A stretch of 43,990 nucleotides of DNA from assembly GCA_029938185.1 (NCBI GenBank), contig JAOZVK010000001.1:1-43990 (forward strand), given 5' to 3'. Both the position numbers and the translations under genes were made by a program. The notes beneath the pieces were generated by a model. It was not told the DNA's origin. It saw nothing but the letters and a program-made list of their open reading frames with translations, and did not search any database. This DNA comes from Bacteroidales bacterium (GTDB lineage Bacteria > Bacteroidota > Bacteroidia > Bacteroidales > JAOZVK01). This document shows, piece by piece, positions 2,551 to 37,522 of this stretch (positions are counted from its first letter, which is position 1; the number at the start of each line of letters is the position of its first letter).

Positions 2551-2580
2551 GCATAAGCAATATTAAATGGGTAGAAGACC
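2551..2580 (-). repeat. GGTCTTCGACC-family dispersed element (head part)
   Basis: GCATAAGCAATATTAAATGGGTAGAAGACC ends directly against the stop codon (2581-2583) of the minus-strand gene. Confidence 0.6.
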
Positions 2581-4131
2581 TTATTTACTAATCAATTCAA
2601 AATCAGTTCGTCTATTTTGTTTTTTCCCTTTTTCAGTTTTATTATCGGCAATTGGTTTGTCAGGTCCATTTCCGACTATTACAAATCTATTTTTATCAAA
2701 ATCGTGAACTTCAATAAGATAATTTGCAACAGCAGTTGCACGCTTTTTTGATAACTCTTTATTAACGGCTTTACTTCCTACATTATCTGTATTTCCTTCT
2801 ATACGAATACGTGCATTTGCAAAAGATTTTGCAATATCAAGGAATTCATTATCAATTATATATTTCATATTCTCATCAAGTGTTGATGTACCCGAAGCAA
2901 ATGTTATTCTTACACGTTTTGTTGATATTGCTTCAGCATTAGTTACATCTTCGGTTATTTCACTAAACTTAACTGCTCCTTCAGCCTCATGCCCTGCACC
3001 TGTTAAGTTTATTGATGATATTATAGATGAGTTGCCTATAAGTCTCCAATTTTGGATTTTATCTTTGATATAATTTGCTTTTTTATATTTTATATTCATT
3101 TTGTTGTATATCTCTTCTCCTGTTATACCACTATAATCAGAGTTTAATCCATAAAAATTTAGGTTATCGCCATATGTACATAACCTTGTATTATTTATTG
3201 CACCTAAACAAAATTCTTCGCTTTGATTTAAACCTTTTGCTAAAATTTTTGCTGCTTTATTTTTATTTTCATCTGATGAGTTTATTTCAGAAGCTCCAAT
3301 TAACCACCCTTCAACAAGCCCTTTTATTTCTTTTCGATTTTTTTCAAGAAAATTTTTCTTAACAACAAAAACATCTGCAATTATATAAGAAGCTTCTTTT
3401 GTGCTTTGTAATATTTTTGAACCTTTTACTTTTTTTATACAATCGGCATCATCTGGACTCCATACAACAGCAGCATCTACTTGCCCTGTTTTAAACATAT
3501 CTGCTGCATCTATTGCACTTGCTACTTTTACAACTTCAATATCAGAATATTTCATATTAGAAGCATCAAGTAGCCATAATAGAAAAGTATGACTTGGAGT
3601 CATTTCTGCAAATGCTACTTTTAGTCCTTTCAAGTCGCTAACTTTATTAATACCTCTTCTTACAACAATTGCATCTCCACCTCTTGACCAATCAGATTGC
3701 ATAATAACTTGTGGTTCAAAATCTTTAAGTCCATTTACTTCAGTTGTAAAAGCATCAATTGTAGCCCATAGCAGGTCTACTTCATCTGCTTTCCATGCAC
3801 TTCTGGAGGCATTAAAATCATCTAGGACTTTAAATTCAACCATAAATCCATATTTTTTATAAAATCTTGATTGTTTATTTGCATTAAAGCCTTCATTAAA
3901 AAACTGTCCTCCAGCATAACCTCCCCATGTTACCACTCCTATTTTAATTACTTTATCGCCCTTACTTACATTATTGTCTTCTTCTTCTGAATTGTTATCG
4001 GTTGTATTATTTATACTACCATCTGGTATAATATATTTTTTTAATGGTGTATAATACACTAATGCAGCAATGCCTCCAACAACTAATACAACAATTAGAA
4101 GTTTCGAAAATGGTGTTAATTTGTTTTTCAT
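2581..4131 (-). CDS. membrane-anchored fusion of a periplasmic substrate-binding domain (NMT1/TauA/SsuA-like) and an OmpA C-terminal peptidoglycan-binding domain
   Basis: There is an N-terminal TM helix (LLIVVLVVGGIAALVYY). The central region resembles a nitrate/sulfonate-type binding protein (IKIGVVTWGGYAGG.., VDAAVVWSPD). The C-terminus is OmpA-like (IRIEGNTDNVGS...NKELSKKRATAVANYLI...RRTDFELI). Confidence 0.8.
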   Translation of the reverse strand: MKNKLTPFSKLLIVVLVVGGIAALVYYTPLKKYIIPDGSINNTTDNNSEEEDNNVSKGDKVIKIGVVTWGGYAGGQFFNEGFNANKQSRFYKKYGFMVEFKVLDDFNASRSAWKADEVDLLWATIDAFTTEVNGLKDFEPQVIMQSDWSRGGDAIVVRRGINKVSDLKGLKVAFAEMTPSHTFLLWLLDASNMKYSDIEVVKVASAIDAADMFKTGQVDAAVVWSPDDADCIKKVKGSKILQSTKEASYIIADVFVVKKNFLEKNRKEIKGLVEGWLIGASEINSSDENKNKAAKILAKGLNQSEEFCLGAINNTRLCTYGDNLNFYGLNSDYSGITGEEIYNKMNIKYKKANYIKDKIQNWRLIGNSSIISSINLTGAGHEAEGAVKFSEITEDVTNAEAISTKRVRITFASGTSTLDENMKYIIDNEFLDIAKSFANARIRIEGNTDNVGSKAVNKELSKKRATAVANYLIEVHDFDKNRFVIVGNGPDKPIADNKTEKGKKQNRRTDFELISK

Positions 4132-4149
4132 ATGATTTATATTTTTTAT

Positions 4150-4181
4150 GGCTCTTTGAGCCTTTTTATGTTACTTACGCC
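4150..4181 (+). repeat. variant of the GGTCTTCGACC-family element (GGCTCTTTGAGCC TTTTTATGTTACTTACGCC)
   Basis: Same head architecture (short GC hairpin followed by ..TTACTTACGC) as the other copies. Confidence 0.5.
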
Positions 4182-4240
4182 TTAATATACTTAGTTTATA
4201 AACAATTACTTATTTTAATATAATACAAAAATTTAATTTT

Positions 4241-5248
4241 TTAATCAAAAAGATTAGAGTAGTCACTAATATTACCAATATCCTTAGGTACATCTTTAGT
4301 AATATTTTCTTCTTTTTTCAAATCTTTAACTTCAGGTTTTTCGCCAAGAAGGAATGACATTCCTTCACTTTCCATTTTTTCAAGTAAAGCTAAACCTTCT
4401 TGCTCATATACACCATTCTGAAGGTCTACACTATCAATAAAACTGCCCGAAATTTCGATAAACCTTTCCATTTCGCCAATTTTATTGTGAACGTCTTCTA
4501 CAATAGCTTCTGTTGCTAAATCGAATATTTGCTTTTTATCAGGATCTCCACTAATTATATTCATAGCTCTTTTCATAGCTGTATGACCTGCTTTAATAGC
4601 TTTTGCTTCTTGTTTACGCATTCTTACTTCGTTTTCAGTATCTTTAATAAGATAACCCGAGTTTGTATGTATTTTTGACAAGACTCTGTACAAAAGTTCC
4701 ATCTTGTTAAGCAATGCTCTGTATCTTGTATTTGAATCTTTTAGTCTACCATATTGGCGTGTATTTATTGCTACAAGTTCCATATTACCTTTTTTCTTTG
4801 CTTGCTCAGCCATTTTAAGATTTTGTTCCATCTCCTTTTTGTTCTGAGCAATTATTCTGTTCAGCTTCGAAACCTGACCTTTAAGTTTAGCAATATGAGT
4901 ATTCATTTCTTTTAAATTCTTATATAAATAATCAATATAAGATTCTAAAATTTTTATAGGATTAATTTGTACAAAAACTCCTGTAACCCATCTCATTACA
5001 CTTTTGTACATATACCAAATCAGATTACGGAATTTTGGGTCAAGCAATACATAAACCATCACAGCCAATACTGCAAATAATGCAATTGTAGTAATCAGAC
5101 TTGTTAGCAATGATTGTATAAAAGCGAAAATCGCTACATGATAAATTAATAGAACAACTACAATACCTATTAAAAAGATGATACCGGTTGCTCCTTCTGG
5201 TCGCTTCCAAAATGATTTTATTTTTTGTTTTATTTCTCCGTTAAGCAT
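4241..5248 (-). CDS. membrane-anchored coiled-coil protein, PspA/IM30 (ESCRT-III-like) type
   Basis: Two or three N-terminal TM helices are followed by long heptad-like helices (NPIKILESYIDYLYKNLKEMNTHIAKLKGQVSKL..MAEQAKKKGNMELV..). This matches PspA/Vipp1 architecture. The assignment is by pattern only. Confidence 0.5.
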   Translation of the reverse strand: MLNGEIKQKIKSFWKRPEGATGIIFLIGIVVVLLIYHVAIFAFIQSLLTSLITTIALFAVLAVMVYVLLDPKFRNLIWYMYKSVMRWVTGVFVQINPIKILESYIDYLYKNLKEMNTHIAKLKGQVSKLNRIIAQNKKEMEQNLKMAEQAKKKGNMELVAINTRQYGRLKDSNTRYRALLNKMELLYRVLSKIHTNSGYLIKDTENEVRMRKQEAKAIKAGHTAMKRAMNIISGDPDKKQIFDLATEAIVEDVHNKIGEMERFIEISGSFIDSVDLQNGVYEQEGLALLEKMESEGMSFLLGEKPEVKDLKKEENITKDVPKDIGNISDYSNLFD

Positions 5249-5380
5249 AATTTTATTTTTATGTTAGGTTACTAAACTTTAAATGGTACAATTATTTAAT
5301 GATACAATGGTACAAAACTTTGATTAATAATTGATAACCATTTGTTAATGTTAAAACTACATCAGTTTAGAGTATATATA

Positions 5381-5483
5381 TAAGTATTCTTACAAAAGTT
5401 TTTCGACATTTACCTATTCATAATTTACTGATTAATTTGCATTTGTACTAATGCGTAAGCAACTATAAATTAGGTCGAAGACC
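5381..5483 (-). repeat. GGTCTTCGACC-family dispersed element, full-length copy
   Basis: The reverse complement reads GGTCTTCGACCTAATTTATAGTTGCTTACGCATTAGTACAAATGC...GTCGAAAAACTTTTGTAAG. It is about 90 percent identical by eye to the copy at 37415-37522. Its first G completes the TAG stop of the gene ending at 5483. Confidence 0.8.
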
Positions 5484-6190
5484 TAAGGGATTGATTTAAG
5501 TTTTTCTATTTTAGATACTATTTGATTGGCAACAACCATAAAAGTAGTTTTAAAACTACTTTCAGTTTTGCTTATTTTAGACATTGAAGTATTTATATCG
5601 TTTTTAATATTCTGTATTTCTTGTTTACTTTCATTAATTTCGTGAGTAAGTTGTGCTATTTTATTAGCTTTATCTTTTATTTGTTTTTCAATATTTTCAA
5701 TTGATTTTTTCTTTTTATTTACTTGTCCGTCAGTTTGTTTTTTTAGAGCTTCATTAAACTTATCTTTTTCATTAGTAAGTATTTTTAAATAATAGTCCGC
5801 TGTTTCTATTACTTTTTCTTTTGTTAGACCTTTTGTTGATAAGGTTGCCAAAACTGTTTGCATTTTTATAGTTTCTTCCAATGGAATATTTTTCATAGCT
5901 TGGAGAGCTTCAATAAATTCCAAATAATCATCGCCAGGTAAATTTGCATCATAAATAGCTTTTGTCAGAGAATCAAATATTTTTTGATTAAACTCACCTT
6001 TGCTATTTTCTACTTTCGGCTTATTAATTTTTGTTGTTTTCTGCGAATATTGAGTTGTTGTTTTTTTAAGCTCAGGTTTTTTTGGTTCAACTTTGTCTTT
6101 TACTACTTCTTCATTTTTTTTAGTAATTTCTTCAACTTCCTCATCTGAAACGAAAAAGATACTTTTTAATTTATTTAAATCTATTGCCAT
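5483..6190 (-). CDS. hypothetical lysine/glutamate-rich coiled-coil protein
   Basis: Long ORF on the same strand as its neighbours. It has a coiled-coil C-terminus (KQIKDKANKIAQLTHEINESKQEIQNIKNDIN) and no catalytic motif. Confidence 0.55.
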   Translation of the reverse strand: MAIDLNKLKSIFFVSDEEVEEITKKNEEVVKDKVEPKKPELKKTTTQYSQKTTKINKPKVENSKGEFNQKIFDSLTKAIYDANLPGDDYLEFIEALQAMKNIPLEETIKMQTVLATLSTKGLTKEKVIETADYYLKILTNEKDKFNEALKKQTDGQVNKKKKSIENIEKQIKDKANKIAQLTHEINESKQEIQNIKNDINTSMSKISKTESSFKTTFMVVANQIVSKIEKLKSIP

Positions 6191-6493: not shown

Positions 6494-6517
6494 ATAAAAA
6501 AAGGCTCTTCGAGCCTC
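6494..6517 (-). terminator. probable intrinsic terminator after the ftsK-lolA unit
   Basis: The minus strand reads AGGCTCGAAGAGCCT followed by TTTTTTT immediately after the stop at 6523. Confidence 0.55.
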
Positions 6518-6522
6518 CAAAT

Positions 6523-7164: not shown

Positions 7165-7222
7165 TTTTTTATAGTTTTTAAATTTGGTATATAAATTAAA
7201 AAGGTCTTTGACCTGGTTTATT

Positions 7223-7348
7223 GGGCTACATGTAAGAAGTTGGACAGTCTTGTTTATCAGGTGTTTCGTAACATGGTAAAAATCAATCCTGTTAATCCTG
7301 TAAATCCTGTCAAAAAATAAAATAATGTCCAACACTATACGTGTAGCC
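7223..7348. repeat. MITE-like element with terminal inverted repeats GGCTACAYGT..GTTGGACA
   Basis: GGGCTACATGTAAGAAGTTGGACA ... TGTCCAACACTATACGTGTAGCC. The core CAATCCTGTTAATCCTGTAAATCCTGTCAAAAAA is nearly identical to the copy at 31407-31533. Confidence 0.8.
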
Positions 7349-7350
7349 GT

Positions 7351-10995: not shown

Positions 10996-11040
10996 CAGTT
11001 CTATAATATTTAGGTTTTCAACCTGTTTAATATTTCTATT

Positions 11041-11103
11041 GCCCTCCCCCGCATTTCGCTTTGCTTCATACGGGGCTAACAATAGGTCGTCCCAATGGGA
11101 CTT
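11041..11103 (-). repeat. GC-rich double-hairpin repeat module (GTCCCATTGGGAC .. TTGTTAGCCCCGTATGAAGCAAAGCGAAATGCGGGG)
   Basis: The reverse complement matches 15356-15415 at roughly 90 percent by eye. Confidence 0.7.
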
Positions 11104-11820: not shown

Positions 11821-12417
11821 ATGTATAAAATATATTTTGAAAATAGATATATTGAATTAACGAACAACAAAAATAATAATAAATTTGAATTATATTATTA
11901 TTCAAAAATTAAAAATTTAAAAACTTTTATAAAACAGTTTATAAAAGATGGTAAAACACACAATATTTATATATATCACGAAAATATAGATATATTGGTT
12001 AAAGATTTTTTTGCTTGTTTTTGCTTAGTAGATGCTGCTGGAGGAGTAGTTGAAAATAGTGAAAATAAAATATTGATTATAAACCGTTTGGGTAGATGGG
12101 ATTTGCCTAAAGGCAAAGTTCATAAAAATGAAAATTACAAAACAGCTGCTCTAAGAGAAGTAAACGAAGAGTGTGGAATTAGTAATATGAAAATCATAGA
12201 TAGCATGCCAACAAGCTATCATACATATGCTCGTAGGGGGAAAAATATTTTGAAAAGAATATTTTGGTATAAAATGAAATATGAAGGAAATGAAAAATTA
12301 ATTCCTGAAAAAGAAGAAGGTATTACTGAAGCTATATGGGTAAAAAAAACAAAACTAAATAAGTTTTCTAAAAATACTTACCAAAGTTTAAAAATAGTTT
12401 TTAAAAAAATTAGATAA
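11821..12417 (+). CDS. NUDIX hydrolase
   Basis: Nudix box LPKGKVHKNENYKTAALREVNEECGI (GX5EX7REUXEEXGU). Confidence 0.85.
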   Translation: MYKIYFENRYIELTNNKNNNKFELYYYSKIKNLKTFIKQFIKDGKTHNIYIYHENIDILVKDFFACFCLVDAAGGVVENSENKILIINRLGRWDLPKGKVHKNENYKTAALREVNEECGISNMKIIDSMPTSYHTYARRGKNILKRIFWYKMKYEGNEKLIPEKEEGITEAIWVKKTKLNKFSKNTYQSLKIVFKKIR

Positions 12418-12450
12418 GGTCTTCGACCTATTTTGCTTATTTATAATAAA
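12418..12450 (+). repeat. GGTCTTCGACC-family element (head part)
   Basis: GGTCTTCGACCTATTTTGCTTATTTATAA starts on the base after the TAA stop at 12415-12417. Confidence 0.6.
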
Positions 12451-13768: not shown

Positions 13769-13906
13769 GGCTACCCGTCAGAAATTGGACAATCTTGTTT
13801 TTCAAGTAGTTCTAATCAATGAATTAAAGTAAAGATTAGCAAAACTTTGCGTCAAACTTTGTGTAACTTTGCGGTTAAAAAGCGGCTAACTTAAAACTGG
13901 TAGCCC
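13769..13906. repeat. MITE-like element related to the GGCTAC..TTGGACA family, with a different core
   Basis: GGCTACCCGTCAGAAATTGGACA ... AACTTAAAACTGGTAGCCC, with an internal triple AACTTTG(C/T)G motif. Confidence 0.6.
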
Positions 13907-14043
13907 AGTTTATTATACATCGTACATAAGCAATATCAAACAAGTCGAGGACTTAATTATTAAAATAAATACAATTAAATTTTAATAATACTATAATAAT
14001 ACAGACTTTTGTATCATATTAAAAACTTAAAAAAAATATAAAA

Positions 14044-15415: not shown

Positions 15416-15462
15416 AGTGTGTAAATCATAATAATACAATCAAAAAAAGAATAAAACTTGAA

Positions 15463-15565
15463 CTAAGTAGTATAACAAAAGTTTTTCGGCATTTAGGTTT
15501 TTGCAATTAGCTATATAACAGTAGTATGTAAAAACGCGTAAGCCACATTAAATAGGTCGAAGACC
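15463..15565 (-). repeat. GGTCTTCGACC-family element, full-length copy
   Basis: ..CAAAAGTTTTTCGGCATTT...GCGTAAGCCACATTAAATAGGTCGAAGACC. Confidence 0.8.
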
Positions 15566-15577
15566 TTAATTTATTTT

Positions 15578-15680
15578 GTAACTACTATTACAAAAGTTTT
15601 TCGGTATTTGTTTTTGTGCAATTGGCTATATGATAGCAATTAATAAAAATGCGTAAGCCACATTAAATAGGTCGAAGACC
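15578..15680 (-). repeat. GGTCTTCGACC-family element, full-length copy in tandem with the previous one
   Basis: ..CAAAAGTTTTTCGGTATTTGTTTTTGTGCAATTGGCTATATGATAGCAATT..GCGTAAGCCACATTAAATAGGTCGAAGACC, ending 5 nt before the stop of the gene at 15686. Confidence 0.8.
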
Positions 15681-15685
15681 TTATT

Positions 15686-16498
15686 TTATTCATATCTACC
15701 AGATTTTAGTATTCCAATTTCGTTTTTGGAAAGAAATCTCCATTTCCCTCTCGGTAGACTTTTTTTTGTTAATCCTGCAAAATATACTCTATCAAGCCTT
15801 ATTACTTTATAATCAAAATGCTCAAAAATACGTCTTATAATTCTGTTTTTACCAGAATGTATTTCTACACCTATATTACTTTTATCCATTCCTTCGACAT
15901 AGCTTACTGCATCAGGTTTTGCCATTCCATCATCTAACTCTACACCTTCTATTATTGCCGATAAATCTCTTTTTGTTAATACTTTGTCAAGACTTACATG
16001 ATATGTTTTCTTTTTATTATATTTAGGATGGGTTAATTTTCCTGTTATATCACCATCATTAGTAAATAAAAGTAAACCTGTTGTGTTTCTATCTAACCTA
16101 CCTACAGGATAAACTCTTTCTTCGCAAGCATTTTTTATCAAGTCAATAACTTTTTTCTTGGCATAAGGATCGCTTAATGTTGTGATAAAATCTTTTGGTT
16201 TATTTAGTAATATGTATTGTTTTTTTTCAGCCGACATTTTTTTTCCTTTGACTTTAACAATATCCGATGATTTAACTTTCGTTCCTAATTCTTTTACTGT
16301 TTTATTATTAACAGTAACATTTCCAGCAACAATATGTTTATCAGCCTCTCTTCTTGAACACAAACCAGCATTTGCAATAAATTTATTCAAGCGAATATCT
16401 ATTTGCTCAACTTCTTCTTTTATTTTAGTATTTTTAAATTTATTTTGTTTATTTGCCTCTATTTTTTTTTCAATTCTACTTTTATATTTTTTTTGCAT
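15686..16498 (-). CDS. rluB: RsuA/RluB-family 23S/16S rRNA pseudouridine synthase with N-terminal S4 domain
   Basis: S4 domain IRLNKFIANAGLCSRREADKHIVAGNVTVN. Catalytic motif VYPVGRLDRNTTGLLLFTNDG. Confidence 0.85.
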   Translation of the reverse strand: MQKKYKSRIEKKIEANKQNKFKNTKIKEEVEQIDIRLNKFIANAGLCSRREADKHIVAGNVTVNNKTVKELGTKVKSSDIVKVKGKKMSAEKKQYILLNKPKDFITTLSDPYAKKKVIDLIKNACEERVYPVGRLDRNTTGLLLFTNDGDITGKLTHPKYNKKKTYHVSLDKVLTKRDLSAIIEGVELDDGMAKPDAVSYVEGMDKSNIGVEIHSGKNRIIRRIFEHFDYKVIRLDRVYFAGLTKKSLPRGKWRFLSKNEIGILKSGRYE

Positions 16499-16521
16499 AT
16501 CCTAATTGTTTTTAAAACTAA

Positions 16522-16622
16522 GGTCTTTGACCTATTTATTGTTGCTTACGTATTTTTTTAATGCTTTAATAATGTGCGATTTAATAAAATATTGAAAAAC
16601 TTTTGTTAGACTACTTATAATC
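16522..16622 (+). repeat. GGTCTTCGACC-family element
   Basis: GGTCTTTGACCTATTTATTGTTGCTTACG...GAAAAACTTTTGTTAGACTACTTATAA. Confidence 0.75.
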
Positions 16623-16680
16623 AAGTGTCGCAAAAAATTTTATGCGAAAGTAGCGTAAAAAGGTTCGAAGAGCCAAAATA

Positions 16681-16711
16681 AAAAATGAAGCCTAAAAAAA
16701 GTGGCTTCATT
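16681..16711 (-). terminator. probable intrinsic terminator downstream of infB
   Basis: The minus strand reads TGAAGCC-ACTTTTTTTA-GGCTTCA followed by TTTTTTATTTT. Confidence 0.5.
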
Positions 16712-16751
16712 TAGACTCTTTGAGCCTTTTTATATTGCTTTCACCTAATTA

Positions 16752-16856
16752 AGTCTTCGACATATTTAATGTGGCTTATACATTTTTATAAATTGCTATT
16801 ATGTAGCCAATTATACAAAAATAAATGCCGAAAAACTTTTGTTTGGGTACTTAGTT
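16752..16856 (+). repeat. GGTCTTCGACC-family element
   Basis: AGTCTTCGACATATTTAATGTGGCTTATACATTTTTATAAATTGCTATTATGTAGCCAATTATACAAAAATAAATGCCGAAAAACTTTTGT.. Confidence 0.8.
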
Positions 16857-16879
16857 TAATAATTGTAAAAGTAAAAATT

Positions 16880-16911
16880 GTACCTGAGCTACACTAAATA
16901 GGTCGAAGACC
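16880..16911 (-). repeat. GGTCTTCGACC-family element (head part)
   Basis: CTACACTAAATAGGTCGAAGACC, 7 nt before the infB stop codon. Confidence 0.6.
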
Positions 16912-16918
16912 TTAATAT

Positions 16919-20242: not shown

Positions 20243-20446
20243 ATTTTGACTTTAATCAATTTTTTTGCACATTCATTACCAAAAATAATTATTTTGGAAC
20301 AACTATTGTAATTTTGAATGTGTTCTTGTAGTTATAATACTTATTTTCTAAAATTATAATTTTAAGGTTTTTTAAACCTACTAAATGCTACTTATGCATT
20401 TTATCAATTTTCTAATAATATAATAATTAAACAAAACATAAATTAT

Positions 20447-20552
20447 GGTCTTCGACCTATTTTAATTGTGGCTTATGAATTTTTGTAAACTATTTGTCAT
20501 ATAACTAATTGTATGACAATAAATACTTTTTTTTTGTAAAACTACTTATAAT
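20447..20552 (+). repeat. GGTCTTCGACC-family element in the nusA-infB spacer
   Basis: GGTCTTCGACCTATTTTAATTGTGGCTTATG..TTGTCATATAACTAATTGTATGACAA..TTTTGTAAAACTACTTATAAT. The central hairpin has a different sequence but the same position as in other copies. Confidence 0.8.
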
Positions 20553-21918: not shown

Positions 21919-21973
21919 TGTTAAGTTTTATTTTAAACTTTGTACAAAGTTTATTGTTAATAAACTATTTTAA

Positions 21974-22000
21974 GGTTTTTGACCTATTTAATGTTGTTTA
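21974..22000 (+). repeat. GGTCTTCGACC-family element (degenerate head) in the rimP-nusA spacer
   Basis: GGTTTTTGACCTATTTAATGTTGTTTA. Confidence 0.5.
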
Positions 22001-22031
22001 TATTCTATGCAAAATAAAAAAACAAAAAAAT

Positions 22032-22911: not shown

Positions 22912-22937
22912 AGAAATTTTAAATTATAATTTGATTT

Positions 22938-27534: not shown

Positions 27535-27647
27535 CTAAAATTCTGGCATTTGTTTTTGCACAATTAACTGTATGGTAGCGATTTGCAAAAATATATATAA
27601 GCCACATTAAATATCAAGCGAAAACAACATTAAACAGGTCGAAGACC
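27535..27647 (-). repeat. GGTCTTCGACC-family element with partly duplicated head
   Basis: ..GCATTTGTTTTTGCACAATTAACTGTATGGTAGCGATT..TATAAGCCACATTAAATATCAAGCGAAAACAACATTAAACAGGTCGAAGACC. Confidence 0.7.
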
Positions 27648-27663
27648 TTTAAATACATAAACT

Positions 27664-29484
27664 GTGAAAAAATTTATACTCTTATTAGTAATATCTGTAA
27701 TTTCAATTGTTATTACAAGTGCACAAAATTATACATCAGATAGTCAGCTTGCACAAAACTATTTTAAAGCAAAACAATATGATAAGGCATCAGTATTGTA
27801 CGAAAAATTATACAAAAAAACTAGTTCAAAATTTTATTTTAAATATTTGCTCGAAAGTTTAATTGAGCTTAACGAGTTTTCTAATGCTGAAAAAATGATA
27901 AAAAAGAAGCTTAGAGGAAGAAATATTGATATAACATATTATGTTGATTTGGGTTATTTATATAAAAAGCAAAATAAGCCTGAAAAGGCTACATCTCAAT
28001 TTGAGAAAGCATTAAAAAAATTCCCAAATGATCAATATAAAATAAGAAGATTGGCAAATGCATTTATTTCTAAAAAGGAATATGATTATGCCGAAAAGGT
28101 TTATTTAAAAGCCCAAGAAAATACAAGCTATACTTTTCTTTTTGATTTGGCTAATTTATATACACTTCAACGAAAATATCAGCAAATGATTGATATTTAT
28201 CTTGATTTATTAAATAAAAATGAAAAAAATCTTAAAACAGTTCAAAATAGACTAAGATATTGGATTAATAATGATTTTGATGATAGTTTTAAATCAATAC
28301 TTAGAAAAAGTCTATTAAGGCGTATACAAAAATTATTGAAAAATGATATTTTTGAAAAAATGCTGATTTGGTTATATATTCAAGAAAAGGATTTCAAAAA
28401 TGCATTTCGTCAAGCAAAAGCTATTGATAAAAGAAATAATGAGTTGGGACATAGAGTGGTAGCAATTGGTAATTTGGCTCGTTCCAATAATGATTTAGAT
28501 GTTTCGTACAAAGCATACAAGTATGTTGCAGATAAAGGTCGAGGGAGTATGTATTATTATGAATCTAAGTCGGGTATGTTGAGTGTTTTGTATAAAAAAG
28601 TTAATTTAAGACAAATAAGAACCGAACAGGAAATATCAAATTTAGAAAAACAATACTTAACAACAATAAACGAACTCGGTCGCTCAACTCAAACTATAAA
28701 CCTGATAAGAGACTTGGCACACCTTCAAGCATTTTATTTAAATAAAGCTTCTGATGCCATAAGTCTACTTAATAGTGCTTTAAGTATTGGGAACTTACCT
28801 TCAAATCTTAAAGGTATTGTAAAAATTGAATTAGGTGATATTTTGTTATTAACTGGTGATATTTATGAAGCTACATTTGCATATGCTCAAGCTGAAAAAG
28901 CAAACAAATCAAATAGTATTGGTTATGAAGCAAGATTCAAAAAAGCAAAATTAGCTTATTTTGATGGTAAGTTCAAATGGTCTTTAGCTCAACTTATAGT
29001 ACTGAAATCTAATACATCTAAACTTATTGCAAATGATGCTTTTCAACTGTCAATGTTTATTAAAAAAAATATAGAACAAGATTCAAATACAACAGCAATG
29101 AAAATATTTGCAAGAGCCGATTTATATAGTAATCAAAATAACGATTCTCTTGCATTGATAACATATGATACAATAATTAATGAGTTTAGTGGACAGGAAA
29201 TTACTGCAAATGTGTATTTTAATAAAGCAAAAATTAAACTAAAAAATGGTGATTTCAATACAGCCGTAAAGTATTTTAAAGAAGTAGTTTCAAAATATTC
29301 GTATGATTTGTTGGCTGATGATGCAATGTATTCATTGGCACAAATATATGATTATAATTTGAAAGATAAGAATAAGGCAAAGCAAGCATACAAAAATATT
29401 ATTTTAAACTATAAGGGGAGTATATTTACAGTTGAGGCTCAAAAAAGATTTAGAATATTAAGGGGTGATAATATTGAGCAATAG
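27664..29484 (+). CDS. secreted tetratricopeptide-repeat protein (GTG start)
   Basis: Signal peptide MKKFILLLVISVISIVITSAQ, followed by repeated A..Y/F..A..L TPR-like 34-mers throughout. Confidence 0.75.
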   Translation: MKKFILLLVISVISIVITSAQNYTSDSQLAQNYFKAKQYDKASVLYEKLYKKTSSKFYFKYLLESLIELNEFSNAEKMIKKKLRGRNIDITYYVDLGYLYKKQNKPEKATSQFEKALKKFPNDQYKIRRLANAFISKKEYDYAEKVYLKAQENTSYTFLFDLANLYTLQRKYQQMIDIYLDLLNKNEKNLKTVQNRLRYWINNDFDDSFKSILRKSLLRRIQKLLKNDIFEKMLIWLYIQEKDFKNAFRQAKAIDKRNNELGHRVVAIGNLARSNNDLDVSYKAYKYVADKGRGSMYYYESKSGMLSVLYKKVNLRQIRTEQEISNLEKQYLTTINELGRSTQTINLIRDLAHLQAFYLNKASDAISLLNSALSIGNLPSNLKGIVKIELGDILLLTGDIYEATFAYAQAEKANKSNSIGYEARFKKAKLAYFDGKFKWSLAQLIVLKSNTSKLIANDAFQLSMFIKKNIEQDSNTTAMKIFARADLYSNQNNDSLALITYDTIINEFSGQEITANVYFNKAKIKLKNGDFNTAVKYFKEVVSKYSYDLLADDAMYSLAQIYDYNLKDKNKAKQAYKNIILNYKGSIFTVEAQKRFRILRGDNIEQ

Positions 29485-29525
29485 TTTAGCTTTTCTATCT
29501 TTTATTTTGTTTACGCATGATATAA

Positions 29526-29638
29526 GGTCTACGACCTATTTAATAACATAATTGCTTGACATATAATCAACTGTATTTCAAAAAACAATCTCATTATAAA
29601 ATTGGTAATAACTTTTGTATGGGTGCTTATAATGAGCT
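29526..29638 (+). repeat. GGTCTTCGACC-family element (diverged)
   Basis: GGTCTACGACCTATTTAATAACATAATTGCTTGACATATAATC...AACTTTTGTATGGGTGCTTATAATG. Confidence 0.65.
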
Positions 29639-30081: not shown

Positions 30082-31407
30082 ATGAAGAAAATAATCATAT
30101 ATGTTTTCCTTTTATTTTTCACAATCATAGAAATAAATATAGTTGCACAAAATCAACTAAAAAAACAAACTCCCAAAACTGCCTGTCTAAAAAATATTTC
30201 GATATATAGGGAATTTCAGAAAATAAAGCTATATAACAGAGCTGCTGTTGCTTGGGAAAGTGTTTATACGGAATGTCCTAAAATAAAAAAATATATTTAT
30301 ACTGATGGAGTAAAGATATATAGAAAATTAATTGATAAAGAAAAAAACACAATAAAAAAAGAAAAACTAATAAACAAGTTGTTAGAAATATACGATAATC
30401 GTATAAAGTATTTTGGTGACGAAGGATTTGTAATAGGAAAAAAAGGTTTAGATTTAATAAGATATAGAAAAAAAGATATTGATATTGCATATAAATATCT
30501 TTCTAAATCAATCGAACTAAGAAAGGAAAATGCAGGGGCTGGTGTTGTTTTGGCACATATGCAAATTACAATGAAATTTTATAAGGAGGATAAAAAAAAT
30601 AGTTCCGAAGCAATAAATAATTATATAAATTCATATGATATTATAAGATCACAAATTGTTAAAAATAAGAATAAATTATATATAAAAAAGTTATTAAAAG
30701 TTAAATATAAAATTAATAAATCATTTAAAAGCAGTAATATATATAAAACAAATTTATATAGCGAAATGCTTAAAAATAGATATAAAGAAAACTTTAACGA
30801 TTATAAAAAAATATCATTAATTCAAAATATACTTGAGAGTACAAATAAAATTGAAACAGAATTATACAAAAATGTTTCCTTGCGATTATATGAATACTCC
30901 AAACAAGCTTACTCGTCATACAAAATAGCAAGATATTATATGGTAAATAAAAATTATGTTGAAGCTGTTAAATATCTTGATAAATCAATTGAAACAGAGA
31001 TTAATAGCAAGCGAAAATCTAAATATTATTATGATTTAGCATTAATAAATTTATCTGGCTTAAATAATATTCCCAAAGCAAAAATGCTTGTATCAAAATC
31101 TATCGGCTTAAATAAAAAATATGGAAAAGCATATATTTTACTTGGCGATATATATGTAGCAGCAAGCAGTATATATGGTAATAACAATTTTGAACAAAGG
31201 GCAATGTATTGGTTAGCAGTTGATAAATATAAAATAGCCAAATCAATTGATAAAAAATATACAAAAATTGCTAATAAAAAAATATACCAATACAAGGATT
31301 ATTTTCCTGCCAAAAATGATATATTTTTCAATGGTTATAAAGCTGGTGATAAATATCATATAAAAAGTTGGATAAATGAAACTACCAAAATTAGAGCGAG
31401 AACTTAG
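30082..31407 (+). CDS. secreted helical-repeat (TPR-like) protein, function unknown
   Basis: Signal peptide MKKIIIYVFLLFFTIIEINIVAQ. Helical repeat pattern (YSSYKIARYYMVNKNYVEAVKYLDKSIE..). Confidence 0.65.
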   Translation: MKKIIIYVFLLFFTIIEINIVAQNQLKKQTPKTACLKNISIYREFQKIKLYNRAAVAWESVYTECPKIKKYIYTDGVKIYRKLIDKEKNTIKKEKLINKLLEIYDNRIKYFGDEGFVIGKKGLDLIRYRKKDIDIAYKYLSKSIELRKENAGAGVVLAHMQITMKFYKEDKKNSSEAINNYINSYDIIRSQIVKNKNKLYIKKLLKVKYKINKSFKSSNIYKTNLYSEMLKNRYKENFNDYKKISLIQNILESTNKIETELYKNVSLRLYEYSKQAYSSYKIARYYMVNKNYVEAVKYLDKSIETEINSKRKSKYYYDLALINLSGLNNIPKAKMLVSKSIGLNKKYGKAYILLGDIYVAASSIYGNNNFEQRAMYWLAVDKYKIAKSIDKKYTKIANKKIYQYKDYFPAKNDIFFNGYKAGDKYHIKSWINETTKIRART

Positions 31408-31533
31408 GGCTATCCGCGTAAAGTTGGACAGTGTTGTTTATCAGGTATTTTGTAACAGGATAAAAATCAATCCTGTTAATCCTGTAAATCCTGTCAAAAA
31501 AATAAAATAATGTCCAATACCAAACGTGTAGCC
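31407..31533. repeat. MITE-like element with GGCTAC..TTGGACA terminal inverted repeats (second copy)
   Basis: GGGCTATCCGCGTAAAGTTGGACA...CAATCCTGTTAATCCTGTAAATCCTGTCAAAAAA...TGTCCAATACCAAACGTGTAGCC. It begins on the last base of the TAG stop at 31405-31407. Confidence 0.8.
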
Positions 31534-31679: not shown

Positions 31680-33191
31680 ATGGAAAATCCTTTTGCAGAT
31701 TATGGTTCAATAGTTTTTGGTGACAGATTTATCGGAAGAAAAGAAGAGATAAAGGCTGTTCAAAACAGAATTTTCGGAAAAGCATATGGAAATCTTGCAA
31801 TACAGGGATTACCGAGAATTGGAAAATCAAGTCTTGCGTGGAAAGCAATTCTGGAATATAATGATGAATTTGAAAAAAAACAATTACTTACTATATTGGT
31901 AGAAGTTGGAGAAATAAAAACTACAACTGAATTTTTTAATACAATATTAAGAGAACTTAATAAGACGCTTTCAAAAAAAGGAATAAATGAGTTTAAAGAT
32001 TTGTATACTCAAATTTTACAAAGTCAAAGCCCTACCGAAAAAAGAATGTTAATCAAAGATTATTTTGAATTTATTAAAAATAAAGGCTTTCGAGTAATTT
32101 ATATATTAGATGAATTTGATAGTGTTAGAAATTATTTTGATGCCCACGATTTTCAACTATTAAGAGCATTATCATACAGTCCTAAAACAAAAATATGTAT
32201 TGTAACTATTTCACGACGAAGACTATCCGAAATTGAAGAAAAAGGTGGAGGTGGTTCTAATTTTTATCAAACTTTTAGTGATATTTATCTTGGTATGTAT
32301 AATGACAATGATTTGTCAGAATATTGGGAAAAGTTTTTTAACAGTCGTATTCATATTTCTAAAGAAGGGAAACAAAAGATTTATGAATTTGCAGGTCGGC
32401 ATCCATTTTTATTAGATTTATTCAATTATCATCTTTATAATAATTTAACAGACAACATAATACAATCAATTGACAAAACAAGAGAAAATATAAAATTAAC
32501 TATACTAAACAACTACAAAACTATTTTAGATTTACTGAAAGAAGAAAAATTAGATACAAAGTTATTTCAAATTATTGTTGGTCCAGTTTATAATATTACT
32601 GTCACAGATGCTGAAAAGTTGGAGCGATATAATTTGGTAGTTAAAAGCGAAAGTAAAACAATAGATATAGGAAACAGGACAAAAGGATATGATGCATTCT
32701 CACAGGATTTTGAAAATTTCCTAATAATGAAAAAAAGAGAAATGCCTATTTGGGATTTATGGAGTGAAACCGAAATAAAACTAAGACAAATTGTTTTAAA
32801 ATGGTTAGTTGAAAAATATGGCAGAAACTGGATTCCAAAGTTTAGAAAATTACAAAATAAGGAAAAGCTAATCGCATCGTTTGAAAATATGCAATTACGA
32901 GAAAAAAAGAGCTTTCCTGACACATATTCAGAAAATTTATTAGATTTTACATATCCGGCAGAACTTTTTGATAAGTTTATGCGAGTTGAATGGAAATGGT
33001 TTAAAGAAATATTTGGAAAAGATATGCAACATTGGAAACATAAATTTGAAGTTCTTGCAAGAATACGAAACCCATTAGCTCATAATAAAGAAAACATACT
33101 TAAAGACTTTGAGAAAAATCAAGCAAAAGCATATTGTGAAGAAGTGATTAGTAAGATAGATGCATGGCAAAAAAGACAAGAAATAATATAA
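31680..33191 (+). CDS. P-loop ATPase (archaeal-ATPase/ATPase_2-like) fused to a C-terminal Swt1-type HEPN domain
   Basis: FIGRKEEIKAV.. lead-in. Walker A GLPRIGKSSL. Walker B VIYILDEFDS. C-terminal module ETEIKLRQIVLKWLVEKYGRNW ... LARIRNPLAHNKE, with the Rx4H HEPN motif at 33066-33083. Confidence 0.75.
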   Translation: MENPFADYGSIVFGDRFIGRKEEIKAVQNRIFGKAYGNLAIQGLPRIGKSSLAWKAILEYNDEFEKKQLLTILVEVGEIKTTTEFFNTILRELNKTLSKKGINEFKDLYTQILQSQSPTEKRMLIKDYFEFIKNKGFRVIYILDEFDSVRNYFDAHDFQLLRALSYSPKTKICIVTISRRRLSEIEEKGGGGSNFYQTFSDIYLGMYNDNDLSEYWEKFFNSRIHISKEGKQKIYEFAGRHPFLLDLFNYHLYNNLTDNIIQSIDKTRENIKLTILNNYKTILDLLKEEKLDTKLFQIIVGPVYNITVTDAEKLERYNLVVKSESKTIDIGNRTKGYDAFSQDFENFLIMKKREMPIWDLWSETEIKLRQIVLKWLVEKYGRNWIPKFRKLQNKEKLIASFENMQLREKKSFPDTYSENLLDFTYPAELFDKFMRVEWKWFKEIFGKDMQHWKHKFEVLARIRNPLAHNKENILKDFEKNQAKAYCEEVISKIDAWQKRQEII

Positions 33192-33260
33192 GGTCTTCGA
33201 TTTGTTTATAGTTACTTACGCATGATATATAATTAACTGCAATTCAGAAAATAAGCTCTA
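33192..33260 (+). repeat. GGTCTTCGACC-family element (diverged)
   Basis: GGTCTTCGATTTGTTTATAGTTACTTACGCATGATAT.. starts on the base after the TAA stop at 33189-33191. Confidence 0.6.
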
Positions 33261-35121: not shown

Positions 35122-35224
35122 GCATTTTAATATTTCATACACATAAATATTTTTACAATACTTGATTATAAGTTGATTAAATAGGTCAAAGGCATTATAT
35201 ATAAATTAAAAAAATAAAATTAAT

Positions 35225-36661
35225 ATGAAAAAAGAAAATTTAAAAAATCAGGAAGAAGACAAAACTTTGCTTGAAGGAAGTGAAAATTTGACAGATAAAA
35301 ATAATAATGAAATTGTAGAGGAAGAAAAAAAAACTTTGAAAGACAAGATTATTAATCAAAAAACAGCCTTGCTTGTTGCCGGTGGCGGATTGATTGCAGG
35401 GACTGGATTTGCAGCAGGAACAAAGCAAAATGATGAAATACTTATTGATACCGACAATGACAACATTGCTGATGCTGTTTTGATAGACGAAAACGAAGAT
35501 GGTATTTATAACACTGAAACCGAAATTGAGGAGATAGAGGAAGTTGAGGAAGTTGAAACCGAACCCGAAATTGAAACAAACAGCGAAAACTCAAATAGTC
35601 ATACTTTTAATACAGATACAGCACCTCACACAAGTGAAGGAACGGTTACTGATGATATGTCGTTTTCGGAAGCATTTGGGGCGGCAAGAACTGAGCTTGG
35701 TGCCGGTGGTGTATTTGAGTGGGACGGTCAAGCTTACAGCACTTTTTATGCTGAAGAAGTTGACGAAAACATGAATCCAACAGTTGATTATACAACTACA
35801 AACGACCCTGAATATATTAATAATAACAATTCTGAAAATGATAATGAAAATACCGAAATAAATAACAATACAGATAATGACACAGATATAGATGATAACA
35901 CAGAATTAGAAGATGATACATTTGATGTTGAAAATATAGATGAAATAATTGACAACAGTGTTGTAGATACAGGAACGGTGGAATACGATGGTGAAGTGTC
36001 GAATGATATTCCTGATGATGTTTCTAATACCGAACTTGATAATCACAATAACGAATTTTCCAGTTCAAATGATAATTTTGACGATGAAGGTGGTGATGAC
36101 ATAAATCTAACATTTAACTTTACAAACAATACTGAAAATAACAATACTGAAAATAATAATATTGTAAATAACAATACTGAAAATAATAATATTGTAAATA
36201 ATAATATTGAAAATAATGATATTGAAAATAATGATGTTATAATTATTGATAATGAAAACACTGAAATAAATAATAATACTGTTGAAATTGAAAACACAGA
36301 AATAAACAACAATACTACTGAAAACTCAGATAATAATACAAGTAATGAAACAGATACAGACGATATTGTGGACTTAGATAATGATGTAGAGTTAGATGGT
36401 GATTTAGAAATAGGTGATGGTGCAGAATTAGATGATGATGTAGAGTTAGATGGTGATTTAGGATTAGATGATGATGTAGTTGAAGTTGAAGACATTGATG
36501 AAATAATCGGCAACGGTGTTGTAGATACAGGAACAGTGGAATATGACGGTGAAGTATCAAATGATGTTACTGATGATGTGCCAGATACCGAACTTGATAA
36601 TCACAACGACGACCTTGCAGCTTTAGATGATGATTTTGATGATATGAACGACTGGGCATAA
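35225..36661 (+). CDS. extremely acidic D/E/N-rich repeat protein with one predicted TM segment
   Basis: TM-like TALLVAGGGLIAGTGFAAGT. Conserved-looking block DDMSFSEAFGAARTELGAGGVFEWDGQAYSTFYAEE. A ~47-aa unit is duplicated (..IDEII.N.VVDTGTVEYDGEVSND..D.ELDNHN..) and there are N/E/I microsatellite-like tracts. Confidence 0.7.
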   Translation: MKKENLKNQEEDKTLLEGSENLTDKNNNEIVEEEKKTLKDKIINQKTALLVAGGGLIAGTGFAAGTKQNDEILIDTDNDNIADAVLIDENEDGIYNTETEIEEIEEVEEVETEPEIETNSENSNSHTFNTDTAPHTSEGTVTDDMSFSEAFGAARTELGAGGVFEWDGQAYSTFYAEEVDENMNPTVDYTTTNDPEYINNNNSENDNENTEINNNTDNDTDIDDNTELEDDTFDVENIDEIIDNSVVDTGTVEYDGEVSNDIPDDVSNTELDNHNNEFSSSNDNFDDEGGDDINLTFNFTNNTENNNTENNNIVNNNTENNNIVNNNIENNDIENNDVIIIDNENTEINNNTVEIENTEINNNTTENSDNNTSNETDTDDIVDLDNDVELDGDLEIGDGAELDDDVELDGDLGLDDDVVEVEDIDEIIGNGVVDTGTVEYDGEVSNDVTDDVPDTELDNHNDDLAALDDDFDDMNDWA

Positions 36662-36665
36662 ATTA

Positions 36666-36698
36666 AACTTTGACAAAGTTTAAAACTTTGTCAAAGTT
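36666..36698. repeat. REP-like 33-nt palindrome
   Basis: AACTTTGACAAAGTT-TAA-AACTTTGTCAAAGTT. Confidence 0.9.
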
Positions 36699-36856
36699 GG
36701 AGTTACATAGTTTAACAATGTAAATTTATAACCGTTTGCAATATAATATTACATTATAATGGTCTCATAAATTATTATAGCATTCATAAAGTCTCGGTGT
36801 AGTTAATAAAAAAACTATGCAGTTAAAAAAAGAGCCACACCAAGACATTTCTTACA

Positions 36857-36888
36857 AGTTTGACAAAGTTCAAAACTTTGTCAAACTT
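36857..36888. repeat. REP-like palindrome (slightly degenerate)
   Basis: AGTTTGACAAAGTT-CAAA-ACTTTGTCAAACT. It supplies the spurious TTG start at 36860. Confidence 0.85.
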
Positions 36889-36910
36889 AAATAAACAAAA
36901 TCAAAAAATT

Positions 36911-37414
36911 ATGAAAGTAAAATGTTCAAAATGTGGTAGTATTTTGTTAATTGCCGAAAACAAATTACCAAAAAATAAAAAAAAGGCAATGGTAAAATGT
37001 AAAAAATGTAACCATTCAATTGTATTTACAATTCCTAATGCCGGTGAGCCAGAAGGTGAAAAAACTGAAATTGGCGATGCTAATGAACTAAAAATTCAAA
37101 ATGTAAAACTTATTGAAACAAAAACCGGTAAAGAATATATCTTAAAAATTGGAAAAAATATTATTGGAAGAAAAACAGATATTTCTATTGAGGGAGATAA
37201 ATACATTAGCCGTTTACATTGCCTTGTGGAAATGAAAAAACAAACTTGGGGCATCGAACTCACAATAAGCGATGATGGAACAGAAACAGGAAAGCCGAGC
37301 ACAAATGGAACTTTTTATAAAGATGAAAAAATATCAAAATTTGATAAAATTGTGCTAAAAAATGGTGACAAAATACGTGTAGGACGCACCGATTTAACTG
37401 TAAAATTTTATTAA
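36911..37414 (+). CDS. MJ0042-type zinc-ribbon plus FHA domain protein
   Basis: MKVKCSKCGSILL..VKCKKCNHSIVF zinc ribbon. FHA signature IGRKTDISIEGDKYISRLHC...STNGTFYKDEKI...LKNGDKIRVG. Confidence 0.85.
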   Translation: MKVKCSKCGSILLIAENKLPKNKKKAMVKCKKCNHSIVFTIPNAGEPEGEKTEIGDANELKIQNVKLIETKTGKEYILKIGKNIIGRKTDISIEGDKYISRLHCLVEMKKQTWGIELTISDDGTETGKPSTNGTFYKDEKISKFDKIVLKNGDKIRVGRTDLTVKFY

Positions 37415-37522
37415 GGTCTTCTATCTATTTATAGTTGCTTACGCATTAGTACAAAGACAATTTAATCAGGAAATTATGAATAAGTAAATGTCGAAAAAAT
37501 TTTGTAACAGTACTTAATTGAA
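37415..37522 (+). repeat. GGTCTTCGACC-family element, full-length
   Basis: GGTCTTCTATCTATTTATAGTTGCTTACGCATTAGTACAAAGAC...GTCGAAAAAATTTTGTAACAGTACTTAATTG starts on the base after the TAA stop at 37412-37414. Confidence 0.8.

Follow-up and report, generated by a model that had tools for sequence, protein, structure and literature searches.

How a short repeated sequence can come to stand, to the single base, at the ends of genes is the question raised by a 43,990-nt stretch of DNA (the window) from a low-GC uncultured Bacteroidales bacterium, in which about 19 copies of one hairpin-bearing head are found. For REP- and MITE-like repeats it has long been an open question whether single-base placement relative to translation stops is achieved by targeting or by selection alone. 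If the stop rule described below were to hold genome-wide, this family would offer a clean natural case for that question, and would show whether a 5-bp post-stop hairpin alters mRNA fate in Bacteroidota. To our knowledge, repeat elements of this kind have hardly been described in that phylum. There is a practical side as well: small repeats fill about one-fifth of the non-coding DNA and break assemblies, and their rules therefore matter when gene ends, start codons and operons are to be annotated correctly.

We consider it probable, at roughly 60%, that the copies form a non-coding, non-autonomous MITE/REP-like repeat family of an uncultured Bacteroidales lineage that is mobile now or was so recently. 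The family is new, it belongs to a known kind, and its rule on position at stop codons is unusually strict.

Make-up and census of the repeat

The head consists of [A/T]TAA, a 5-bp hairpin (AGGTC-TTC-GACCT) and ATTTAATGTKGCTTACGCA. Eight heads extend through a centre into a tail that reads CGAAAAACTTTTGT(N5-6)TACT. The core of a full copy measures 95-103 nt and has TA at either side, and all eight full copies can be read as TA/A...T/TA (slashes mark junctions); a short flank, [A/T]TA, is conserved 5' of every head. Terminal inverted repeats were not found, the first 45 nt scoring 7-10 against the reverse complement of the last 45 nt, where shuffles average 7-8.

With at most one mismatch, GGTCTTCGACC is present 11 times in the window against 0.08 expected, and nhmmer profiles recover six strong and two weaker full copies, one truncated copy and about ten solo or short heads (Table 1). 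Pattern count and profiles together bear out the dispersed element of about 105 bp, present in both orientations, that a first-pass annotation of this DNA had proposed, and every position it had listed is occupied: those at 4150, 16662 and 6503 by a variant hairpin (GGCTCTTYGAGCC followed by a T-run), and that at 35183 by a mini copy. All 19 heads lie in non-coding DNA, which makes up 21.7% of the window. Relative to gene and skew direction, orientation is balanced at 10:10. The two most similar copies, at 5377 and 37408, are 91% identical. At <300 bp the element is of MITE size; it is also non-coding, multi-copy and mostly intergenic.

Table 1. Copies, heads and derivatives of the repeat in the window
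Feature	Position	Strand	Context
Full copy, tandem pair member 1	15577..15688	-	nhmmer E=4e-30; flanks TA/AGGTC...TAGT/TA; head 5 nt past rluB-like stop (15686)
Full copy, tandem pair member 2	15458..15574	-	nhmmer E=1e-31; direct repeat, period 115
Full copy	5377..5492	-	TAG of gene 5483..6190 shares G (or AG) with element
Full copy	37408..37522	+	TAA of FHA gene 36860..37414 directly adjoins GGTC
Full copy	16515..16623	+	Opposed to flanking genes; head 23 nt upstream of rluB-like start codon
Full copy	16743..16859	+	In 420-nt infB/rluB-like spacer; tail-to-tail with solo head at 16918
Full copy, diverged (weaker)	20439..20550	+	nusA-infB spacer; strongest central hairpin; folding z=-3.6
Full copy, weaker, nested in older head	29525..29627	+	nhmmer span 29522-29634
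Old degraded head, 5' half	29485..29524	+	1-3 nt past TAG of gene 27664..29484; 3' half from 29628
Truncated copy: head, then 5'-truncated copy without clear tail	27545..27649	-	nhmmer; head 16 nt upstream of gene 27664 start
Solo head	2545..2587	-	TAA of OmpA-family gene 2581..4131 adjoins GGTC
Solo head	12414..12447	+	TAA of NUDIX gene 11821..12417 adjoins GGTC
Solo head and beginning of centre	33188..33260	+	TAA of ATPase gene 31680..33191 adjoins GGTC; two G.U pairs in stem
Solo head	16860..16918	-	7 nt past infB stop (16919)
Solo head	21970..22007	+	In rimP-nusA spacer
Solo head, compensated stem AAGTC/GACTT	13885..13961	-	
Solo head	7198..7235	+	ftsK-lolA spacer; upstream of true lolA start (7164), 38 nt away
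Solo head, compensated stem AGGTT/AACCT	11005..11041	+	About 17 nt upstream of likely miaA start
Degraded head, 6-bp stem AGGTTT/AAACCT	20363..20401	+	
Mini copy, about 25 nt	35172..35197	-	Both termini kept (head start and ..AACT); TA flanks
Variant head, GGCTCTTTGAGCC + TTTTTATGTTACTTACGCC	4150..4184	+	
Two inverted variant heads flanking canonical terminator hairpin	16643..16745	none	

Position at stop codons

Four heads follow a TAA directly, with a TAA/GGTC junction at 2581, 12417, 33191 and 37414, and at 5483 a TAG stop overlaps the element, the G being common to both. The first-pass claim that the element starts at, or shares bases with, the stop codons of these five genes is correct in each case. 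Three further heads lie 3-7 nt past a stop, including the two near-stop cases that had been noted before, at 15686 (5 nt) and 16919 (7 nt); the old degraded head 1-3 nt downstream of the stop at 29484 was absent from the earlier list. All eight stop-proximal heads point in the gene's own direction, all eight co-oriented terminal heads are within 7 nt of the stop, and none of the window copies has its tail abutting a stop. The probability of the observed stop abutment is 1.5e-10 for random placement within non-coding DNA; if every insertion needs TAA, the four TAA cases have a probability of 9e-4, and five cases one of 6e-5. Targeting of TA or TAA does not by itself account for eight of eight heads within 7 nt of a stop, nor for tails that never adjoin one.

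Two explanations had been offered for this pattern. The first, a TAA-containing target or end, is essentially right: the nested insertion described below amounts to the core plus one TA, and since the core starts with A, a TA target becomes TAA. The second, replacement of the 3' ends of genes, is mostly unsupported, as the native TAA of IF-2 is identical in an element-free relative. On comparison of C-termini with homologues, IF-2 is not truncated, and only the protein encoded at 5483..6190 is shorter, by 2-6 residues, which it may have lost from its C-terminus.

Insertion, spacer growth and decay

The copy at 29525..29627 interrupts an older head. Its removal together with one TA gives back GATATATAAT, and the restored head reads CGCATGATATATAAT, exactly as does the solo head at 33188. 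What is inserted, as a single block, is the complete unit with its head, and the sequence grows by the core and one TA. A duplication of TA is read from this one nested case, which an element carrying one TA and inserting without duplication fits equally well.

Insertions of the element have inflated the intergenic spacers of the source genome in comparison with its relatives. In relatives the rimP-nusA spacer measures 12-25 nt and the nusA-infB spacer 80-95 nt; here the two reach 113 nt and 440 nt. Copies also decay or are deleted to solo heads and to mini copies of about 25-30 nt that keep both termini; TA-flanked mini copies with both ends are found at 35172-35197 of the window and at 3380-3411 of a related locus, L018. 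Presence/absence polymorphism was not seen among four assemblies of the source organism; in view of this, and of an identity of only 91% between the two closest copies, the family may or may not be active at present. All assemblies of the source organism break at the right end of the window.

Hairpins and folding

The head hairpin spans 13 nt, with 5 bp and a 3-nt loop. In the alignment it is 95.8% paired, with double-sided changes at all five pairs, and none of 500 shuffles scored as high; six G.U cells are present, on the head strand. Between subfamilies, compensatory changes preserve this 5' hairpin, whichever way the copy is oriented. The first-pass annotation had suggested structural rather than sequence conservation and had placed it in a central hairpin. 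The covariation is clear in the 5' head; for the central stem it is at best weak, with 67% pairing among eight copies and a competing long-range helix that fits better, at 90%.

The energy of the head stem is -2 to -5 kcal/mol, and the tract 3' of it is UAUUUAAU. Folded as RNA, whole copies do no better than shuffles, save one. A lenient terminator pattern scan of the two strands flagged 24 sites, heads included, against 6.3 +/- 3.0 expected.

The repeat in related genomes

L010 and L018 (34-36% GC organism) carry full copies whose head and tail are the same, and L011 and L007 carry heads; the element is absent from six other relatives examined (L009, L012-L015, L019). A metagenome scan returned four matches, of which two are real heads (L007, L005) and two are chance matches in DNA of 55% GC.

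Stop abutment extends to a second genus, where it is seen at infB (L010, L011) and at lolA and one further, unnamed ORF (L018, L010). In L007 a head lies 4 nt from the pyk stop, and L018 carries a mini copy at the ftsK-lolA site, in the place and orientation of the window head at 7198..7235. The infB gene end is occupied in the source genome and in two other genomes. The infB genes of L010 and L011 are 92.7% identical, and the stems of the heads at their stops differ (GGTC/GACC versus GCAC/GTGC), with only about 54% likeness in the sequence past the head; the GCAC subfamily is found elsewhere in the L010 organism. Judged from these alignments, the two heads are probably independent hits on one site.

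Origin and possible function

As a MITE/REP-like family, the repeat might work as follows. The hairpin would be a cis signal on one strand, as single-stranded DNA or RNA, read by the mobilising enzyme, and TA would be the insertion target. With A as the first base of the core, entry into the TA of a TAA or TAG stop would rebuild the stop and leave the protein intact, and such rebuilding, together with preference or selection, would bring heads exactly to stops, always in the gene's direction. In the transcript, a head at a stop would form the very start of the 3' UTR, where it may serve as a weak hairpin barrier, a terminator or a processing site. Tentatively, one may go further and suppose an active, directional homing of the element, or of just its head, to the stop, which the element's first base completes. 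Some mechanism, or else strong selection, would then link it to the point at which translation or transcription of the gene ends, and separate subfamilies would have hit the same stop independently in related genomes. If true, the repeat would be a mobile element that seeks out stop codons and has no inverted repeats, and it may have been exapted as a lineage-wide 'post-stop' module.

Alternatively, the occupation of the same gene ends by heads across genera could be due to selection on a function of the host. The head would then be primarily a gene-end signal of the host, a short hairpin and a U-rich conserved single-stranded tract right after the stop. It could be a minimal (bidirectional) intrinsic terminator, block 3' exonucleases, be cut by an RNase or slow the terminating ribosome, and the 100-nt repeats would be secondary duplications of it. 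The lenient terminator scan does flag heads, on either strand; solo heads remain at stops once the rest of the copy has decayed; the infB and lolA-region gene ends are occupied across genera; and three stop-abutting copies have G.U pairs on the mRNA-sense strand. There are also precedents: in E. coli, a REP that lies no more than about 15 nt from a stop codon influences both translation and the fate of the mRNA, and ERIC elements work through RNase E in a way that depends on their orientation (PMC2229807). We nevertheless think a primary host signal unlikely. The stem is weak and whole copies fold like shuffles, and past infB in L010 the head has a canonical long-stem terminator behind it, as is also present inside 16643-16745, so that the head is not needed for termination. 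Half of the heads are antisense to the operon, yet their hairpin is equally kept, compensated variants included; the head travels with the unit in the nested insertion; and six related genomes lack the element.

Two other accounts concern the nature of the unit itself. Mobilisation as single-stranded DNA by an HUH/Y1 enzyme, REP-RAYT or IS200/IS605-like, would make the 5' hairpin the recognition site, place insertion 3' of (W)TA without duplication, and assign the right end ...CTTA to the element. The asymmetric ends without inverted repeats agree with this, as do the conserved flank 5' of every head, the nested insertion (a core plus one TA without duplication fits equally well) and a hairpin covariation that is strand-specific, G.T-tolerant and found in copies of both orientations. 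It is rather improbable all the same, because the hairpin is at one end only and adjoins the junction instead of sitting 10-20 nt inside, the GTAG/CGTC tag is absent, copies run with and against the likely direction of replication equally often (10 against 10), and no Y1 transposase is found among the window ORFs. Very improbable, in our view, is that the copies are small regulatory RNA genes or cis-regulatory leaders, each with its own promoter. The conserved block of 35 nt, which includes the covarying hairpin, would suit such a role, as would a sigma-70-like TTGAAA-N18-TATAAT match in one tail, but sigma-70-like matches are not enriched (127 versus 119 expected) and, by inspection, the Bacteroidota-type promoter (TTTG / TAnnTTTG) is absent in either orientation. 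Rfam gives no match at any threshold, folding is like that of shuffles, and the tandem, nested and truncated arrangements are typical of repeats.

Comparison with known repeat families

The ERIC/IRU (RU-1) elements of Yersinia and other enterobacteria are A+T-rich, non-coding and about 100-130 bp long, with a terminal TA; they are intergenic and co-transcribed with their neighbours, and what they do to the upstream mRNA varies with their orientation and with whether the ribosome gets to a nearby stop (PMC2229807). The present repeat shares with them the length of about 100 nt, the A+T-rich, non-coding, intergenic character and the TA at its ends. ERIC, however, is a long imperfect palindrome built from inverted ends, whereas here there are no inverted repeats and the 5-bp hairpin is at one end; the two have no sequence similarity and belong to different phyla. 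We know of no description of strict zero-distance stop abutment as a feature of ERIC.

Correia/NEMIS of Neisseria and RUP of pneumococcus (about 105-155 bp) have TA targets and TA termini, a high copy number and deletion derivatives, and their insertion near genes affects transcripts (PMC2229807). Size class, TA termini, abundance and deletion derivatives are all found here too; the clear terminal inverted repeats of both families, which in RUP match an IS630-family element, are not.

REPs are palindromes of 20-40 nt with a GTAG or CGTC tag (PMC3733652). REP/BIME sequences resemble our repeat in being extragenic, very abundant, clustered in both orientations and often placed right after stops, in a hairpin kept by compensatory change and in the single-strand handling that is thought to occur. 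Our repeat differs in its unit of about 100 nt, with a 13-nt hairpin after [A/T]TAA, a long conserved unpaired tract and a distinct tail, and no RAYT gene of the kind that accompanies REPs was found among the window ORFs. The mini elements derived from IS200/IS605 (PATEs) likewise have asymmetric ends, depend on a hairpin and insert 3' of a short conserved flank, but their subterminal hairpins at both ends and strong replication-strand bias are not seen here.

Database searches and candidate mobilisers

At gathering thresholds Rfam gave no match in the window and four related loci, with only chance hairpins at E up to 10, and no tRNA or tmRNA link to the element was found. A scan of viral sequences returned chance matches only, and a literature search with the motif string only unrelated primers. 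Among the matches listed for a gapped head...tail pattern in genome contigs there was nothing beyond one chance match, located in the dnaA region of an actinobacterium. Promoter readings (Bacteroidota -33/-7 motifs and the sigma-70-like tail match) were inspected and gave no consistent match, and a resemblance to dif/Xer sites and to the T-arm was weighed by eye and dropped.

No transposase with matching ends is encoded within the window. The sole transposase is IS110-type, and we rejected its element as the mobiliser because the repeat has no part in its left end (about 219-222) or in the contexts of its insertions. Two short repeat-like strings are present in the 5' region of this IS110 element.

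Copies and anatomy of the element

The dispersed repeat of the window, a non-coding sequence of ~100 nt, is best explained as a small mobile element, non-autonomous and MITE- or REP-like in class. The motif GGTCTTCGACC at no more than one mismatch occurs 11 times in the window, against 0.08 expected. Profile searches recover copies in both orientations. Eight of them are full (six strong, two diverged) and one is truncated; in addition there are about ten heads (the 5' hairpin end) that are either solo, without centre and tail, or part of mini copies, remnants of ~25-30 nt that keep both termini. This confirms the abundant element in both orientations that the first-pass annotation had proposed by eye. 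Three of the positions it listed (4150, 16662 and 6503) belong instead to a sister family of hairpins in which a T-run comes after GGCTCTTYGAGCC. Every copy found falls in non-coding DNA.

The head is the conserved unit: [A/T]TAA leads into the hairpin AGGTC-TTC-GACCT, whose stem has 5 bp and whose loop has 3 nt, and ATTTAATGTKGCTTACGCA comes after it. In full copies the head is followed by a centre that varies and by a tail, CGAAAAACTTTTGT-N5-6-TACT; the tail was not found without the rest of the element when searched for alone. Counted from the first base of AGGTC to the last of TACT, the core is 95-103 nt long, and in each of the eight full copies it is flanked by TA dinucleotides; the most similar pair is 91% identical. 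No terminal inverted repeats were found, end-to-end alignment scores being equal to shuffle scores, and no Rfam family matched the element.

Folding

Conserved structure had been proposed for a central hairpin, where only 67% of cells are paired across eight copies; clear covariation was found instead in the head stem. Multiple alignment of 24 heads (18 from the window and six from other genomes) gave 95.8% pairing and double-sided changes at all five pairs, values matched by none of 500 shuffles. Compensated stems include GCAC/GTGC, AGGTT/AACCT, AAGTC/GACTT and GAGTC/GACTC, and six stem cells hold a G.U on the head strand that would be A.C on the opposite strand. The stem is weak (-2 to -5 kcal/mol), and in all but one case the fold of a whole copy is no better than that of shuffled sequence. 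The central hairpin has a possible competitor, a helix in which GTGGCT of the head would pair with AGCCA of the centre; over the same eight sequences it shows 90% pairing and a single covarying pair.

Position relative to genes

The abutment of stop codons that the first-pass annotation described is borne out. The head follows TAA with zero gap at 2581, 12417, 33191 and 37414, has bases in common with the TAG stop at 5483, and begins 3-7 nt past the stop at 29484, 15686 and 16919, the last two of which had been listed as near-abutments. All eight gene-end heads run in the direction of the gene, and every tail in the window is at least 69 nt away from the nearest gene end. For five of 19 heads to abut a stop exactly, the probability is 1.5e-10 under random non-coding placement; if TAA is assumed to be required, p is 9e-4 (four cases) or 6e-5 (five cases).

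The remaining heads are oriented against neighbouring genes, and most lie 16-55 nt ahead of a start codon, as measured from revised starts of lolA (7164) and miaA (about 10995). In relatives the operon-internal spacers that hold them measure only 12-95 nt, so this position needs no special explanation.

Evidence for movement

Past the stop at 29484, an old head (TAG followed by TTTAGCTTTTCTATCT...TTTACGCATGATA) is interrupted by a complete copy at 29525-29627. When this copy is excised together with one TA, CGCATGATATATAAT reappears, exactly as it reads in the uninterrupted solo head at 33188, and the old head then runs on as TAATGAGCTG. The head therefore belongs to the inserted unit, and each insertion contributes the core and one TA; this TA may be duplicated or carried by the element, and the nested case fits either. 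Mini copies consisting of the two termini between TAs are present at 35172-35197 and in L018, a locus from another genome. The rimP-nusA spacer is 113 nt here against 12-25 nt in relatives, and the nusA-infB spacer 440 nt against 80-95 nt; element insertions account for this inflation.

Effect on proteins

It had also been suggested that the element replaces the 3' ends of genes. Comparison with orthologues argues against this for IF-2, which ends at one position in the window, in the related loci L010 and L011 and in the element-free locus L009; as L009 infB also keeps its TAA, the stop is native. Compared with its homologues, the protein of 5483..6190 stops 2-6 residues early, and removing the element would lengthen its frame by six codons, so a small truncation is possible but unproven here. 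The remaining abutted proteins have complete Pfam domains.

Occurrence in other genomes

The comparison covered 44 kb of host sequence plus about 23 kb from relatives that carry the element. One organism of 34-36% GC from the same metagenome project (loci L010 and L018) has full copies that share their head and tail with those of the window. In this organism the element abuts the stops of infB (TAA followed by GGTCTTCGACC), lolA (TAA then GATCTTCGACC, a full copy) and one further ORF (TAA then GGTTTTTGATC), and a mini copy occupies the ftsK-lolA spacer in the place and orientation of the window head at 7203. L011 is closely related to L010 (92.7% identity in infB; 76% for synonymous-like third positions), and its infB stop reads TAA followed by GCACTTCGTGC, a hairpin subfamily other than that of L010 but also found elsewhere in the L010 organism. 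The DNA past the infB-stop head is about 54% alike between the two. This looks like independent occupation, or replacement, at one and the same stop codon rather than simple inheritance.

On the JGI contig L007, a head lies 4 nt past the pyruvate kinase stop. No heads were found in six other relatives, one of them of 27% GC, and the viral contigs searched gave chance matches only. L012 (ENA ERZ27248460, 27% GC) also has long spacers, for example 700 nt past ftsK, but without heads; they may hold a different repeat family.

Interpretation

In the mechanism we propose, the element would enter at TA, with the core starting with A, and insertion into the TA of a stop codon would regenerate the stop. 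The strict direction (eight heads and no tails at stops) and the clustering within 7 nt are not explained by a TA target and stop regeneration. The preference could reflect targeting linked to gene ends, or selection, for instance if the head is useful or harmless as the start of a 3'-UTR and the tail harmful beside a gene.

The head may also have a function for the host, as weak terminator, exonuclease barrier or RNase site; the parallel with REP and ERIC (PMC2229807) and the head's terminator-like pattern make this plausible, but the stem is weak and proper terminators come after some heads. Covariation between subfamilies and equal retention in copies antisense to the local operon point to a hairpin that would help the element itself to propagate, as a signal recognised on one strand, and not to a site-by-site role.

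The repeat differs from a canonical MITE in having no terminal inverted repeats, from REP in tag and palindrome, and from IS200/IS605 derivatives in the two-hairpin arrangement and strand bias. We therefore file it as a new variant among small non-autonomous bacterial repeats; as far as the literature was searched, no sequence relative is described.

Genomic setting and other repeats

The source bacterium is uncultured, and the window, one entire contig of 43,990 bp, has ~28% GC and 21.7% non-coding DNA, which is high for a bacterium. Its genes are ordinary chromosomal ones (rimP-nusA-infB, ftsK-lolA, miaA, a rluB-like gene and others). IF-2 and FtsK share 55-75% identity with proteins from Bacteroidales/Marinifilaceae-like MAGs, and the closest relative found reaches no more than about 70% identity. 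The same organism (99.98% identity) is present as short fragments in GCA_029940435.1, GCA_029935775.1 and GCA_029935755.1.

Other features of the window
Feature	Coordinates	Remarks
IS110-family transposase, two ORFs	632-952, 949-1986	region 219-2100
IS110 5' untranslated part	322-362	TTTTGACTACTTATAA and GTAGCCACATTTAAT, resembling the end of the repeat tail and, in reverse complement, the 3' part of the head
Sister hairpins	4150-4184(+), 6500-6518(-), 16643-16745	last: long palindrome, two sister heads flanking a canonical terminator stem
86-nt repeat (92% identical)	7237-7322, 31421-31506	core AATCCTGT(T/A)AATCCTGT; first adjoins head in ftsK-lolA spacer, second 14 nt past stop of 30082..31407
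Skew and orientation switch	22560-22940 (approximate)	between rimP and amidohydrolase gene
MmeI/Eco57I-type restriction-modification gene	24354-27476
Conflict-type cluster	34256-41308	nucleotidyltransferase/HEPN pair, zinc-ribbon-FHA protein, caspase-like peptidase, Ser/Thr kinase, FGE-sulfatase-domain protein
Low-complexity Asn/Asp-rich repeat protein	35225-36661	within conflict-type cluster
33-nt perfect palindrome AACTTTGACAAAGTTCCAAACTTTGTCAAAGTT	36666-42092	nine sites; several in C-terminal part of Ser/Thr kinase ORF 38846-40144
210-nt tandem repeat	39770-40489	3 copies, 91-92%; holds several 33-nt palindromes
49-nt repeat AAAAACACCTGCCGAGCGCAATGAAG... (86-88% identical)	37635-37683, 42157-42205, 43882-43930	upstream of caspase-like and RhuM genes, and near contig end

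One sister hairpin, 7 nt past the stop of lolA, appears to be a true small terminator. At the GC skew sign change, genes leftward are all on the minus strand and genes rightward all on the plus strand, as would be expected at a replication origin or other strand switch; dnaA is absent there. A 98% identical IS110 copy lies in a different, paralogous context on the Logan contig L023, and the left end of the IS110 element is likely to be at 219-222, where identity with that contig starts. All assemblies of the window organism break at the identical right end of the window, near the last 49-nt repeat.
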